Shown here piece after piece: positions 51,705-55,920 of a DNA stretch of 64,000 bases. Positions within the stretch are counted from its first letter, which is position 1. Each line of letters starts with the position of its first letter. This DNA comes from Escherichia phage MN04. The notes under the pieces are model-generated. The model did no database searches. It saw only the letters and a program-made list of their open reading frames with translations, and was not told the DNA's origin. The position numbers and the translations under genes were made by a program. The stretch is taken from sequence record MT129654.1; one strand, 5' to 3'.

Positions 51705-51915
51705 ATTGACAATTGAAGGCTCTGATGAAGCCCTGAAGATGTTTGTTGACTGGTTCCACGAACAGGGCGAACAAGGCTTTATGGAATGTTGGGACGGTGG
51801 CCAATGGAATGGTAAAGAAATTGTTTACCCGACTACGTATATCTCTGTTAGTGGTGGATACGATGGCCTTCGTTTTGTAGAATATGATATTGCATCTGAT
51901 GAGGAAGTGAAATGA
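51697..51915 (+). CDS. Hypothetical protein
   Basis: 72 aa; ATG overlaps upstream stop. Confidence 0.45.
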   Translation: MSKLTIEGSDEALKMFVDWFHEQGEQGFMECWDGGQWNGKEIVYPTTYISVSGGYDGLRFVEYDIASDEEVK

Positions 51916-52190
51916 TTGAAGATATCAAGGGTTACAAGCCACATACCGACGATAAAATCAGTAAAGTGAATGCCATTAAAGATGCTGAAGTTCGATTAGG
52001 CTTAATCTTTAAAGCATTAGAAGAAGAATACGTTGAAGCCTTTACATGCTCAGGTGTTGATAAAATGAGTGATGAAGAATTCGACCTCACTCATGAACGT
52101 CTCGCCCAGATTCGTACGGCAATCGAACGCTTGAAAGAAGCCTCCATGTGGGCCTGTCGTTCTGTTTTCCAACCCGAAGAAAAATACTAA
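51912..52190 (+). CDS. Hypothetical protein
   Basis: 92 aa; ATGA overlap. Confidence 0.45.
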   Translation: MIEDIKGYKPHTDDKISKVNAIKDAEVRLGLIFKALEEEYVEAFTCSGVDKMSDEEFDLTHERLAQIRTAIERLKEASMWACRSVFQPEEKY

Positions 52191-52195
52191 AAGCA

Positions 52196-52240
52196 GTTTA
52201 CATCTCCTGTAGACGTGGTACTATAGACCTATCAACTACA
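52196..52240 (+). promoter_or_regulatory. Early promoter module with flanking inverted repeat
   Basis: GTTTACA; CTCCTGTAG ... TACTATAGACCTATCAA ... CTACAGGAG. Confidence 0.6.
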
Positions 52241-52252
52241 GGAGATTACAAA

Positions 52253-52711
52253 ATGTCAGAAATTAATTCAGAAGTATTCATCCGCCGCAACAAATTACGT
52301 CGTCAGTTCGAAACCGAATTTCGTGAACTTAACGCGTCCATCAAAAAAGCCGCCATCAAGAGCGGTGTCCCAGCTTTCTTTATTAAGTACTCTAATCACT
52401 TGTTGGACCGTGCTATCCAACGTGAAATTGACGAAAAATATGTTTTCTCTTTGTTCAAGAAGCTCCATAATCATGTTAAAGAAATCCATGAATTTTTAAT
52501 CCAGGAGCCTCTTCCTGACATAGAATCTGAAATTGTCCCAGGTAAAGTGTATCGTCCACTGCGTCTCGAGATTACCGATAAAACCTTATGGTTGGGTATG
52601 ACCGTAGATCGTAAACATCCTGATAAAGGATATTCATTAAAATGTCGTATGGCATTTGTTAACTCTAAACGTTTAGAAGGTAAAACCAGCACGAAAGTAA
52701 TCTATCTTTAA
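52253..52711 (+). CDS. regB: RegB-like endoribonuclease (tentative)
   Basis: 152 aa (T4 RegB 153); early promoter; position between ip genes and tk; assignment by size and synteny, not confirmed alignment. Confidence 0.45.
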   Translation: MSEINSEVFIRRNKLRRQFETEFRELNASIKKAAIKSGVPAFFIKYSNHLLDRAIQREIDEKYVFSLFKKLHNHVKEIHEFLIQEPLPDIESEIVPGKVYRPLRLEITDKTLWLGMTVDRKHPDKGYSLKCRMAFVNSKRLEGKTSTKVIYL

Positions 52712-52723
52712 TAATGAGGTCTC

Positions 52724-53263
52724 ATGAAAAAAGTATTAGCCACTTTACTATTGACAGTTAGTATGTCTGCCTATAGCGTAGAGCCTACTTTCAGTAATGA
52801 ACAACTCGATAATTTACATTATGCGTATGCTTTCGGTGAACAATACCAAAAGTCGGGAAAGTTCAAAGAAAACCCTAATCAAAAAGGATTAGGATATATA
52901 ATGGCCGGATTATTATGGCAGGAATCATCTGCTGGAATTAATCAAGGTTTAAATAAAGATAAGCACCATGCTTATGGCATGTTCCAAAATTACTTGCCTA
53001 CGTTAAGAAGTCGTGTTCAACAGGTAGGTTGGAAGATGTCAGACAAAGAAATAATTCGTATGGTCCAAAAACGACAGAACAGTGCCTCTTGGGCCTACAT
53101 TGAGCTGTCTTATTGGATTAATGTTCACAAAGGTGACCTGAGAAAAGCGATTGCTTCTTATAATGCGGGCTGGAATGTCAAAGCAGGCAGTAAATATGCT
53201 TCCGAAGTTCTAGAAAAGGCCAATTACCTAAAATCTAAAAAGATGTTTGAGGCGGTATATTAA
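52724..53263 (+). CDS. Secreted lytic transglycosylase-like protein (SLT family motifs)
   Basis: Signal peptide MKKVLATLLLTVSMSAYS; motifs 'WQESS', 'AYGMFQ', 'ASYNAGWN' resembling SLT E-S / GLMQ / AYNAG. Confidence 0.6.
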   Translation: MKKVLATLLLTVSMSAYSVEPTFSNEQLDNLHYAYAFGEQYQKSGKFKENPNQKGLGYIMAGLLWQESSAGINQGLNKDKHHAYGMFQNYLPTLRSRVQQVGWKMSDKEIIRMVQKRQNSASWAYIELSYWINVHKGDLRKAIASYNAGWNVKAGSKYASEVLEKANYLKSKKMFEAVY

Positions 53264-53620
53264 ATGATTAAACAGATGACTATAGCGCTTATGTTGATTG
53301 CTCCGGGAGTATTAGCATCACAGGTTGATGATACAAATAATTCAATTGTCGAGTATGCCACCCGTACAGCAAAAGATTATTGTCATCCAAGTAATACTGA
53401 ATGTGTTATTGAATTCAGTTCAAAAATAACAGCTGCTTTTAAAGATGGGCAGAACGACGTCGAGCATCGCCGAATGAAAGAGAAAACTCTTTCTAAAAGA
53501 TACGAGCAACGTCTAAACGTTACTGAATGTGTTCCGTCTGATAAAAAGTACAAAGAAATGTGCGCGTCTATGGTAGACAGACTCGTTGACTCTTACAACC
53601 GAGGGCTAAACTCTAAATGA
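53264..53620 (+). CDS. Secreted Cys-containing small protein (hypothetical)
   Basis: Signal peptide MIKQMTIALMLIAPGVLAS; four Cys; 118 aa. Confidence 0.5.
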   Translation: MIKQMTIALMLIAPGVLASQVDDTNNSIVEYATRTAKDYCHPSNTECVIEFSSKITAAFKDGQNDVEHRRMKEKTLSKRYEQRLNVTECVPSDKKYKEMCASMVDRLVDSYNRGLNSK

Positions 53621-54096
53621 TTATTGATTATATTAAGGGCGATATCGTCGCCCTGTTTCTCCAAGGTAATATTATTGCACATGGGTGTAACTGCTTTCAC
53701 ACAATGGGTTCAGGTGTAGCGGGTCAATTAGCAAGAGCTTATCCTAAAATTTTAGAAATTGATAAGACTACTACCGAATACGGCTCTCGTGATAAATTAG
53801 GTGATATGTCTATTGTTTTTAAACATAAGCCTAATGGATTTGCAATGTGCTATAATTTATACACCCAATACGAACCAGGCCCTAATCTTGATTACGGTGC
53901 TTTAGTAAACTGTATGATAGAATTAAATCTACAAGCAAATGACCTTTTGTTTAAACCAAGAATTTATATTCCTCGTATAGGTTGTGGTATTGCTGGTGGC
54001 GATTGGGACAAGGTTTCTCAATTAATTGATATGTTTACCCCTGATATTGATTTAATAGTGGTGGATTATGAAAGCACATTACCCACATCCGTTTGA
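53617..54096 (+). CDS. Macro-domain-like protein (putative ADP-ribose binding/processing)
   Basis: 159 aa; 'GDIVAL...NIIAHGCNCFHTMGSGVAGQLARAY' and 'IPRIGCGIAGGDWDKV' resemble macro-domain Gly-rich motifs. Confidence 0.55.
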   Translation: MIIDYIKGDIVALFLQGNIIAHGCNCFHTMGSGVAGQLARAYPKILEIDKTTTEYGSRDKLGDMSIVFKHKPNGFAMCYNLYTQYEPGPNLDYGALVNCMIELNLQANDLLFKPRIYIPRIGCGIAGGDWDKVSQLIDMFTPDIDLIVVDYESTLPTSV

Positions 54097-54280
54097 CCCT
54101 AAAAACAAAGCGGAAATTATTCGGAGTTGGACCGAAACCCGAGTAACTAAATGCCCTATAAAAAGTCAGCATAACACCGATAAATGGTATATTGGTGAAT
54201 ACGTTGAATATACTTTTATAGATAAAAATAAACGTAAACAGCATGTAGAAGAATATTGCTTAAAGGTGCAATGGTTATGA
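54068..54280 (+). CDS. Hypothetical protein
   Basis: 70 aa; overlaps upstream gene by 29 nt. Confidence 0.4.
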   Translation: MKAHYPHPFDPKNKAEIIRSWTETRVTKCPIKSQHNTDKWYIGEYVEYTFIDKNKRKQHVEEYCLKVQWL

Positions 54281-54483
54281 GCCAAGCCCGAATTCTTAAA
54301 ACGGCTAAATGTGAAAAATGTGAATGGCCGGTAATCGCAGCTTTATGCAACGATGAAATGGAATGTGAATTTGATTACTGGTGGTACTGTTCTAATAAAG
54401 GATGTTCTAATCATAAGGGTGAAGGTTTTCATTCTGGTTATTGCGAACATCCTAAATTTGTGCGATATGGTGAACCTAAATGA
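54271..54483 (+). CDS. Cys-rich small protein (putative zinc-binding)
   Basis: ATG 54271; 9 Cys including CEKCEW and CSNKGC. Confidence 0.4.
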   Translation: MVMSQARILKTAKCEKCEWPVIAALCNDEMECEFDYWWYCSNKGCSNHKGEGFHSGYCEHPKFVRYGEPK

Positions 54484-54665
54484 GTTTAAGTATTAGTCAG
54501 AAAAGTAGATTGTTTGAGCTTATTCATGAGCTTTTGGATGAACATACCGAAGCAAACGCTTTTTACGATGAATATGGCCCGCTATCCCCCGAACAGCAAG
54601 AAGAATTTGCTGATCGGTTTGATGAGAAAGAAAACGAATTAATTGCTTATGTGAATACGCTTTAA
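54480..54665 (+). CDS. Hypothetical acidic protein
   Basis: 61 aa; ATGA overlap. Confidence 0.4.
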   Translation: MSLSISQKSRLFELIHELLDEHTEANAFYDEYGPLSPEQQEEFADRFDEKENELIAYVNTL

Positions 54666-54674
54666 GAAGGTAAT

Positions 54675-55247
54675 ATGGCTCAACTTTATTTTCATTATGC
54701 GGCAATGAACTCAGGTAAGACCGCTTCATTGCTAACGGCCGCTCATAACTACAAAGAACGCGGTATGGGCGTGCTCCTTTTAAAGCCTGCGATAGACAAT
54801 AGAGAATCAAGCCATACCATTTCGTCTCGTATAGGGATTAGTCAAGAGGCCAATGCGGTGACTCCGGATATGGACCTATACGAGTTCTATCGTTGGGCTG
54901 AATCTCAAAAAGATATCCACTGTGTGTTTGTGGATGAAGCACAGTTCTTAGAACCTGCACAGATAAAACAACTGGCAAAGATAGTAGACAATTATAATGT
55001 TCCGGTTATGTGTTACGGGCTAAGAACTGATTTTCAGGGTAAACTGTTTCCTGGTTCTGCTGAATTACTCGCTACGGCAGATAAACTCGTTGAGTACAAA
55101 GGTGTGTGCCATTGCGGCCGTAAAGCTACTATGACTGCTAGGGTCCAAGATGGTGTCGCAATTAAGGACGGAGCCCAAGTTTCTATAGGTGGCAACGATT
55201 CTTACGTGTCATTGTGCAGGAAGCACTGGATAGAAATAACGAGTTGA
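54675..55247 (+). CDS. tk: Thymidine kinase
   Basis: 190 aa; 'YAAMNSGKTASLLTAAHNYKERGM' P-loop; 'VFVDEAQF'; C-terminal Cys zinc ribbon. Confidence 0.9.
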   Translation: MAQLYFHYAAMNSGKTASLLTAAHNYKERGMGVLLLKPAIDNRESSHTISSRIGISQEANAVTPDMDLYEFYRWAESQKDIHCVFVDEAQFLEPAQIKQLAKIVDNYNVPVMCYGLRTDFQGKLFPGSAELLATADKLVEYKGVCHCGRKATMTARVQDGVAIKDGAQVSIGGNDSYVSLCRKHWIEITS

Positions 55248-55254
55248 GGGTACT

Positions 55255-55533
55255 ATGGACCTAAATTCAAAGATTTTAATTCTAGCGTTCGCTGTGGCCA
55301 TCTCTTATATTGTTCTTTTGCCCATCATGGATGATGCGGCTTACAAAAGAGAGATAGAAGTTGTAGCAGCGACGTATAATGCTAATAATAAAGAATGTCC
55401 TAATAAAAATGGAATGGATTTAATTAAAGCGCATTATATGCTTTCCATTACCTCGCCTATACAGAGGAATTGGGTTGAATATAATTTTAACGACGTGTTC
55501 TATTCTTATTGTCGTAAGCTTAAAAAGCTATAA
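55255..55533 (+). CDS. Small membrane protein (hypothetical)
   Basis: 92 aa; N-terminal TM helix. Confidence 0.45.
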   Translation: MDLNSKILILAFAVAISYIVLLPIMDDAAYKREIEVVAATYNANNKECPNKNGMDLIKAHYMLSITSPIQRNWVEYNFNDVFYSYCRKLKKL

Positions 55534-55626: not shown

Positions 55627-55920
55627 ATGGGTATTTTCCGTACAGTGGCTTGTATCCTTATGATTGGATGTTTAAGCCCAACATCTTCACTAGCAAACAA
55701 ATCCGACCCTAAATTGATGGACGCCTTTGCTAGTAGTGCGATGCCAGTTTATGCGCAAATGAGTAAACCTAGTGTAAAGGCCTCCGAAGACTACTGGGCT
55801 TATGTAACTGCTTCTTGGAAAATTTCAAATTGCAATACAATAGAGTCTTGCTCGATTGAAGGTCGGGCTATCGGAGAACGATACGCTAAACTAATGAAGG
55901 TAGATGATGAAATTCAATGA
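55627..55920 (+). CDS. Secreted protein or lipoprotein (hypothetical)
   Basis: Signal peptide MGIFRTVACILMIGCLSPTSSLA with lipobox-like LMIGC. Confidence 0.5.
   Translation: MGIFRTVACILMIGCLSPTSSLANKSDPKLMDAFASSAMPVYAQMSKPSVKASEDYWAYVTASWKISNCNTIESCSIEGRAIGERYAKLMKVDDEIQ

Follow-up and report, generated by a model that had tools for sequence, protein, structure and literature searches.

The vs.1-vs gene pair of Escherichia phage MN04: a predicted exported GH23-type lytic transglycosylase and a small four-cysteine protein with a predicted signal peptide

The window analysed here is a stretch of 64,000 nucleotides from Escherichia phage MN04 (sequence record MT129654.1), and our subject is a pair of adjacent genes within it, vs.1 and vs. 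Over positions 52000-54700 the window shares 99% DNA identity with Escherichia phage JS98 (Dhakavirus, Straboviridae), whose record annotates the open reading frame (ORF) at 52724-53263 as vs.1 (179 amino acids) and that at 53264-53620 as vs (118 amino acids). By its sequence, ORF 52724-53263 is the JS98 orthologue of T4 vs.1. The T4 proteins Vs.1 (NP_049725) and Vs (NP_049724) are orthologues of the two products, with 67% and 46% identity, respectively, the latter over the full length. The likeness to T4 extends to the gene order regB-vs.1-vs-tk.4-tk, to overlapping or abutting frames, signal-like N-termini, the motifs and the four cysteines; the differences are at the sequence level only, and JS98 lacks some small T4 ORFs nearby. 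A ribosome-binding site, GAGG, lies 6 nucleotides upstream of the vs.1 start; the vs.1 stop directly abuts the vs start (TAAATG), and the vs stop overlaps the start of tk.4 (ATGA). T4 is arranged alike, its vs.1 and vs frames sharing 8 nucleotides. A preliminary description of this DNA had singled out these two frames, both of which are present on the + strand, as a signal-peptide-bearing SLT-like lytic transglycosylase and a secreted cysteine-rich partner encoded among early genes. That observation was confirmed, but the genes had not been recognised as the named vs.1 and vs of a T4-like phage. The features of the pair are as follows.

52724-53263, + strand: vs.1, encoding the 179-residue precursor of a predicted exported single-domain GH23 (SLT-type) lytic transglycosylase
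52724-52777, + strand: predicted Sec signal peptide of Vs.1, residues 1-18, MKKVLATLLLTVSMSAYS↓VEP (heuristic cleavage site)
52916-52930, + strand: motif I of Vs.1, WQESS, residues 65-69, with invariant W65, E67 and S69
52922-52924, + strand: GAA codon of Glu67, the predicted catalytic acid/base
52970-52990, + strand: motif II, AYGMFQN (AYGMFQ being residues 83-88), counterpart of the family-1 GLMQ, with invariant G85, Q88 and N89
53153-53176, + strand: motif III, ASYNAGWN, residues 144-151, counterpart of AYNAG, with invariant Y146, N147 and G149
53264-53620, + strand: vs, encoding a 118-residue precursor of a small protein modelled with four helices
53264-53317, + strand: predicted signal peptide of Vs, residues 1-18, MIKQMTIALMLIAPGVLA↓SQ (heuristic cleavage site)
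53381-53404, + strand: codons of Cys40 and Cys47, which flank the helix 1-helix 2 turn; predicted disulfide 1
53528-53563, + strand: codons of Cys89 and Cys100, which flank the helix 3-helix 4 turn; predicted disulfide 2

The three Vs.1 motifs, which the preliminary description had quoted, occupy the residues given above. An alignment of 36 homologues, with identity down to 42%, leaves W65, E67, S69, G85, Q88, N89, E127, W131, Y146, N147, G149 and Y158 unchanged in every sequence; because the motifs are invariant over this range, they are not chance matches. The catalytic Glu and all motif positions are likewise invariant across more than 2000 phage records, down to ~27% identity. The Pfam SLT profile (PF01464) matched 30 of the 36 family members at E≤0.01, with a best value of 1.3e-7, and a precomputed PF01464 match is present in several homologues; NCBIfam holds no model for Vs.1 or Vs. 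In UniRef and in a number of GenBank entries, homologues already appear as 'Transglycosylase SLT domain-containing protein' or 'lytic transglycosylase'. The second invariant glutamate, E127 (nucleotides 53102-53104, in YIELSYW), lies on the long helix that precedes the SYNAG motif.

An AlphaFold2 model of Vs.1, built on the 36-homologue alignment, reached a predicted local distance difference test (pLDDT) score of 87, and its top Foldseek matches were MltD, goose-type lysozyme and Slt (probability 0.97-0.99); the modelled protein has the lysozyme-like α-helical catalytic fold. A profile search of PDB sequences aligned Glu67 with Glu73 of goose-type (g-type) lysozyme (GEWL, in IISRES) and motif III with the YNAG of the same enzyme; the matches are weak (E 0.17-0.6) and not significant alone. 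PDB matches to metacaspase-9 were rejected as chance, arising from the 'ESSAG..AYG' stretch. In the comparison with Slt70 and MltE that the preliminary description had proposed, the catalytic glutamate turned out to be conserved: hhalign places the invariant Glu67 opposite Glu505 of the Slt70 precursor and Glu64 of MltE, a residue correspondence only, and motif II opposite SGLMQ and IGLMQ of the two enzymes. We take Glu505 of the precursor to be the catalytic residue numbered Glu478 in mature Slt70. The second acidic residue of g-type lysozymes has no Vs.1 counterpart in the profile alignment, where the 'vdk' stretch is an insertion; this stretch presumably holds that residue, Asp97. Because the second acidic residue is without a counterpart, the alignment leans towards transglycosylase over hydrolase chemistry, which is no proof.

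Compared with E. coli MltE/EmtA, also of GH23, Vs.1 is predicted to be a soluble protein of one domain, its signal peptide of the plain type and without a lipid anchor, and compared with Slt70 it lacks the superhelical U and L domains. From the E. coli family-1 transglycosylases it further differs in its low identity (13-16%), in its motif II, GMFQN, and in the extra invariant Glu127. We consider it very likely that Vs.1 is an exported GH23-fold protein and probable that it is an active transglycosylase.

Some Vs.1 homologues bear the names 'RegB', 'endoribonuclease' or 'site-specific RNA endonuclease' in GenBank and UniRef (for example, Citrobacter phage Miller 1315-1962 and Salmonella phage Guerrero 1456-2073). 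These proteins have the ES, GxxQ and SYNAG motifs and no RegB domain, and the label appears to have been transferred by mistake from regB next door.

Export signals were scanned for with a heuristic that looks for a positively charged n-region, an uncharged hydrophobic core of 7-15 residues and small residues at -3/-1. The N-terminus of Vs.1 consists of MKK, an 11-residue hydrophobic core (VLATLLLTVSM) and then SAYS↓VEP; the predicted mature protein has 161 residues, a mass of 18.6 kDa and a pI of 9.5. Across the family the sequence of this region is variable and its hydrophobic character is kept. At 70 vs.1 loci from IMG/VR, 37 of the 44 distinct Vs.1 N-termini show the signal pattern, the remaining seven being cases of an upstream start picked by the ORF caller or of a truncated gene; distant homologues from Suspvirus, Kuttervirus and Vibrio phage nt-1 retain both the signal-like N-terminus and the motifs, and a signal-like N-terminus is also seen in distant Felixounavirus homologues. 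A signal-anchor-release sequence or a membrane anchor was ruled out for Vs.1, as the hydrophobic core has only ~11 residues. Independently, the annotators of Acinetobacter phage Lazarus called Vs.1 a 'putative lytic murein transglycosylase, putative periplasmic secretion signal'; the ORF after it they marked 'putative periplasmic secretion signal' too. Motifs, fold and N-termini thus bear out the description of ORF 52724 as an SLT/GH23-type protein with a signal peptide and predicted export.

Vs begins with MIK, followed by QMTIALMLIAPGVLA↓SQ, so that the predicted signal peptide ends in VLA↓SQ; the predicted mature protein has 100 residues and 11.5 kDa (11.0 kDa for T4 Vs). The pattern recurs in all 54 distinct Vs N-termini from the 70 loci, five of them with the lipobox LSGC. 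In a CC31-like clade (loci L037, L041-L043 and L058; ORF from ~3549) the Vs homologue starts MKKLFVLLVV(V/F)ALSGC↓K, a canonical lipoprotein signal. An exchange of one signal type for the other, signal peptidase I for lipoprotein, is to be expected only of an envelope protein. We judge export of Vs to be likely.

Vs matches phrog_1256 (T4 Vs, 'valyl-tRNA synthetase modifier') at 4.3e-34, and its four cysteines, Cys40, Cys47, Cys89 and Cys100, are all invariant; the predicted export and the four cysteines agree with the preliminary description. The structural model (pLDDT 79 overall, >80 outside the signal peptide) has helices at residues 23-39, 45-68, 73-89 and 94-115. In a 24-sequence alignment of the wider family, which reaches down to 18-27% identity to the window protein, three of the four cysteines, one Tyr, two Gly and one Leu are invariant; the fourth Cys is present in every sequence, shifted by about two alignment columns. 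The spacings between the cysteines vary (5-10 and 8-10 residues). This pattern fits two predicted disulfide-stapled hairpins better than a metal site, and a Zn(Cys)4 site was judged less likely, the spacings being long and variable. An exhaustive profile search with Vs returned seven short proteins; those that have names are Vs orthologues from phages, and a bacterial annotation is absent from all seven. Precomputed matches cite PF26829 for Vs. In one contig resembling Escherichia phage vB_EcoM_005 (L012, 3541-3798) the Vs orthologue has 85 residues and lacks the first cysteine pair, and the adjoining vs.1 is intact; the missing pair suggests an internal deletion, and it may be a natural vs-defective variant.

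Homologues of Vs.1 were found by tblastn in 2076 of 50,697 phage records and those of Vs in only 795. The gap is an artefact of sensitivity, because a Vs hidden Markov model (HMM) that included the Lazarus and Miller homologues, run on the 70 loci, finds a Vs-like ORF at most of them: 64 of the 70 have one downstream of vs.1 on the same strand, with a gap of -8 to +7 nucleotides in 56. Eight RB43-like loci have 470-1216 nucleotides inserted between the two genes, and of the six loci that have no Vs, four belong to Aeromonas-type contigs and two to contigs of ~310 kb. The vs.1-vs junction is kept in Acinetobacter-phage loci that have no regB, tk.4 or tk nearby, and also where extra ORFs separate vs from tk.4. 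These data are good evidence that vs.1 and vs form a conserved two-gene unit, which fits the earlier suggestion that the second protein is a partner of the first.

Outside Straboviridae, Escherichia phage SUSP2 (1501-2052) encodes a Vs.1 homologue that has a signal peptide and the full set of motifs, right after rIIA-rIIB and with a polynucleotide kinase gene next. A Vs-like gene is not annotated immediately downstream of it, the Vs HMM not having been applied at this locus. The gene for the enzyme has passed from one phage family to another on its own.

To place the pair in its transcription unit, the following neighbouring features are needed; regB and tk.4 are given for context only.

52197-52224, + strand: early-type σ70 promoter upstream of regB, TTTACA-16-TACTAT with TG (consensus match only)
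52253-52711, + strand: regB, endoribonuclease, upstream in the same transcription unit (Pfam REGB_T4, 2.2e-69; JS98 annotation)
53617-54096, + strand: tk.4, macro-domain gene and downstream neighbour, outside the pair (Pfam Macro, 2.7e-8)
54675-55247: tk

The site at 52197-52224 is the sole promoter-like site close upstream of the regB-vs.1-vs-tk.4 block, and no MotA-type middle promoter occurs between 51801 and 53700. A time-course study classes T4 vs.1 and vs as 'early RNA, middle protein' (PMC9697503 supplements), from which it follows that both T4 proteins are made. The placement of the pair among early genes thus stood as well, the two lying after regB and before tk.4/tk, with an early-type promoter upstream and T4 orthologues of the early RNA class.

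This timing bears on the idea that Vs.1 assists in lysis, as a reserve endolysin or one delivered through Sec, and contributes to the final burst. Its GH23 fold would suit such a part, a Felixounavirus homologue is annotated 'putative lysin', and 'some role in cell lysis' has been proposed by Nolan et al. (PMC1524935). However, vs.1 is transcribed early, far from the lysis genes, and is non-essential in T4, and a constitutively active lysin exported early would lyse the cell prematurely. T4 e-minus mutants do not lyse, which shows that Vs.1 is no substitute for the endolysin. We regard a lysis role as very unlikely.

In T4, vs.1 and vs are non-essential on LB plates, with 46 of 52 and 30 of 32 TA sites hit, respectively, and vs is the most depleted gene in M9-glucose; a precise vs deletion confirms the defect, plaques being impaired only on M9-glucose (10.1101/2025.11.20.689424). 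In the comparison of LB with M9, the log2 fold change was -2.19 for vs (adjusted p 0) and -0.87 for vs.1 (p 0.0055, adjusted 0.155). In LB liquid, transposon reads for the pair were 26.6 and 22.6, ~10-fold under those of the neighbours regB (179), tk.4 (290) and vs.3 (652) (same preprint for both data sets). The low counts common to vs.1 and vs fit a shared function.

The reading that we favour, with moderate confidence, is that of an early exported murein-remodelling enzyme, Vs.1, and a putative co-exported partner, Vs. Vs.1 would be made from the early regB transcript and exported via Sec soon after infection, with removal of the ~18-residue signal peptide. In the periplasm it would act as a small soluble GH23 family-1-type lytic transglycosylase, in which Glu67 would cleave the β-1,4 bonds between N-acetylmuramic acid (MurNAc) and N-acetylglucosamine (GlcNAc) of the host murein (MurNAc-β-1,4-GlcNAc), leaving 1,6-anhydroMurNAc ends. 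Such cuts in the sacculus would be limited and made long before holin-triggered lysis; since the enzyme is early, pre-lysis and dispensable for plaques, its job would most likely be limited, non-lytic remodelling or turnover of the sacculus. Translation of vs is coupled to that of vs.1, and Vs would be co-exported and oxidised in the periplasm to a four-helix fold stapled by two disulfides. There, in the envelope, it would bind Vs.1 and hold the enzyme in check, direct it to its site or make it more stable. A functional partnership of Vs with Vs.1, of which inhibition is one sub-case, we propose tentatively, our confidence in this part being low.

Several points weigh against this reading, beginning with the enzyme itself. 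The window Vs.1 matches Pfam SLT with E=0.015 and 15.3 bits, under the curated gathering threshold of 21.3; motif II reads GMFQ and not GLMQ (MF for LM); and the hhalign comparisons with the single Slt70 and MltE sequences are statistically weak (probability <1%). A literature search found no activity, localisation or interaction data on Vs.1 or Vs. One might suppose from the divergence of this member, its score under the Pfam cut-off and the F for L/M in motif II that Vs.1 is a catalytically dead murein-binding protein whose fold is kept for binding. Conservation of the catalytic Glu and motifs over the phage records surveyed above is what would be expected of an active enzyme, and we hold loss of catalysis to be highly improbable.

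Further points concern the pairing. T4-like genomes are broadly syntenic, which makes adjacency weak evidence for a functional link. A mirror-tree analysis gave no specific signal of co-evolution: the correlation is 0.68 between Vs.1 and Vs and 0.85 between Vs.1 and Tk, and the partial Vs.1-Vs correlation after controlling for Tk is 0.29. Because of this general synteny and the mirror-tree result, the conserved pairing does no more than suggest a physical Vs.1-Vs partnership. Vs.1 occurs without detectable Vs in Aeromonas T4-like phages, Felixounavirus, Kuttervirus and Vibrio phage nt-1, and therefore the enzyme does not need Vs. The Vs model, too, has generic helical structural matches only.

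One form of partnership is an enzyme-inhibitor, immunity-like pair, in which Vs would block Vs.1 or another muramidase, for example gp5 of a superinfecting phage; early export of a wall-cutting enzyme would then not kill the cell too soon. T4 Spackle (against gp5), PliG (against g-type lysozyme) and Tsi3 (against Tse3) are likewise small exported proteins that neutralise periplasmic GH23/GH24 enzymes, and Spackle is also an early T4 gene, with the difference that it is not encoded beside its target. The pair is translationally coupled and co-conserved and has two products predicted to be exported. Vs is by far the faster-evolving protein (mean p-distance 0.63 vs 0.39 for Vs.1), and loss of vs is worse than vs.1 insertions on minimal medium, as expected if unrestrained Vs.1 were harmful. 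However, no sequence or fold match of Vs was found to the lysozyme and transglycosylase inhibitors Spackle, PliG, PliC/MliC, Ivy and Tsi3; many phages tolerate Vs.1 without a Vs-like gene; and insertions in vs.1 are depleted as well, contrary to what a pure toxin-antidote pair predicts unless there is polarity on vs. We think such a pair improbable. EtgA, a specialised small transglycosylase, also has a protein partner, the type III secretion rod protein EscI; none of the genes here encodes a secretion apparatus, Vs is unrelated to EscI, and the Vs.1-Vs partnership is one that we infer.

The T4 data also admit other interpretations. The scarcity of insertions in vs.1 could stem from polarity on vs, and the minimal-medium phenotype of vs fits its name at least as well as it fits an envelope role. 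The label 'valyl-tRNA synthetase modifier' is carried by vs in T4 and hundreds of relatives. Vs might accordingly be the T4-type 'tau' factor that binds the cytoplasmic valyl-tRNA synthetase (ValRS), with its adjacency to vs.1 being inherited synteny and Vs.1 a stand-alone exported transglycosylase. Studies by Neidhardt, Marchin and McClain in the 1970s-80s reportedly found that vs mutants alter ValRS properties and plating on valS(ts) hosts. Also in line with such a role, the defect of the T4 vs deletion is confined to M9-glucose, where amino-acid supply matters, and the effect of vs.1 in M9 is not significant after correction. The tau factor, presumably of ~10 kDa, would be near mature Vs (~11 kDa), a figure that fits either story. 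Evidence against a cytoplasmic role comes from a signal peptide in all 54 distinct homologues and a canonical lipobox in one clade, from invariant Cys, Tyr, Gly and Leu columns that form the pattern of a disulfide-stapled secreted protein, and from Cys spacings whose variation is unlike that of a zinc site. His-tagged full-length T4 Vs is insoluble in the E. coli cytoplasm, and our literature search found no record of how the tau factor was tied to the vs ORF. We consider this explanation possible, and on the whole unlikely.

Returning to exported Vs.1 and Vs, the most far-reaching version would have the vs product not, or not only, as a cytoplasmic ValRS modifier, and instead as an exported, disulfide-bonded regulator or inhibitor of Vs.1 in an envelope module, a version that we rate as doubtful. 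If it were true, the vs label would reflect a mis-assignment, a compartment-mixing artefact in extracts or a second activity, and the pair would matter for phage fitness in poor host medium. Should export of Vs be confirmed, a 50-year-old label would need revision, and the minimal-medium phenotype would point to envelope physiology and not to translation; should it be disproved, Vs would be an odd case of a cytoplasmic protein keeping a signal-like N-terminus.

That Vs.1 is an exported cell-wall-cutting enzyme is a prediction already known since 2003. Nolan et al. (2006) reported the SLT similarity of vs.1 as 'marginally significant', citing earlier PSI-BLAST matches to lysozyme (PMC1524935). 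The predicted export of Vs and the near-universal abutment of vs.1 and vs were not found in the searchable literature, and the clash of this export and linkage with the gene name is the only part with some novelty. The interpretation in the preliminary description is supported in part: it agrees with the predicted secretion signal and the four cysteines of the 'partner', and it missed the published SLT similarity of vs.1 and the partner's long-standing annotation as a cytoplasmic ValRS modifier. Vs.1 is among the most widely conserved 'hypothetical' genes of T4-like phages, with some homologues outside the family, and an early exported wall-cutting enzyme has no place in the classical T4 lysis scheme.

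GGAG, the RegB cleavage motif, stands in the Shine-Dalgarno region of regB (52236-52252, in caGGAGat); the ribosome-binding sites of vs.1, vs and tk.4 are GAGG or lacking. By the T4 rule, should it apply, RegB would cleave the regB message and spare those of vs.1 and vs.

The JS98 record gives the order, on one strand, as denV ... vs.4 - regB - vs.1 - vs - tk.4 - tk.3 - tk.2 - tk - rI. The name AdfM has been given to the T4 orthologue of tk.4, an anti-DarT factor active against the DarTG2 defence system (2025 preprint); most records still label tk.4 'phosphatase' despite its macro domain. Two genes upstream of vs.1, the vs.4 orthologue (51912-52190, + strand, 92 amino acids) matches the Pfam Acb2/Tad1 hairpin domain at 4.7e-16 and is probably, by this similarity, a cyclic-nucleotide sponge against CBASS/Thoeris-type defence. 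Some 2 kb downstream of the pair, the window contains rI (55627-55920) and a small membrane-anchored ORF (55255-55533). In Acinetobacter phage Lazarus (1995-3320), vs.1 is the first of five genes in a row whose products have predicted secretion signals (Vs.1, the Vs-like ORF, two further ORFs and rI), and envelope-directed early genes show a tendency to cluster in the vs.1-rI region.

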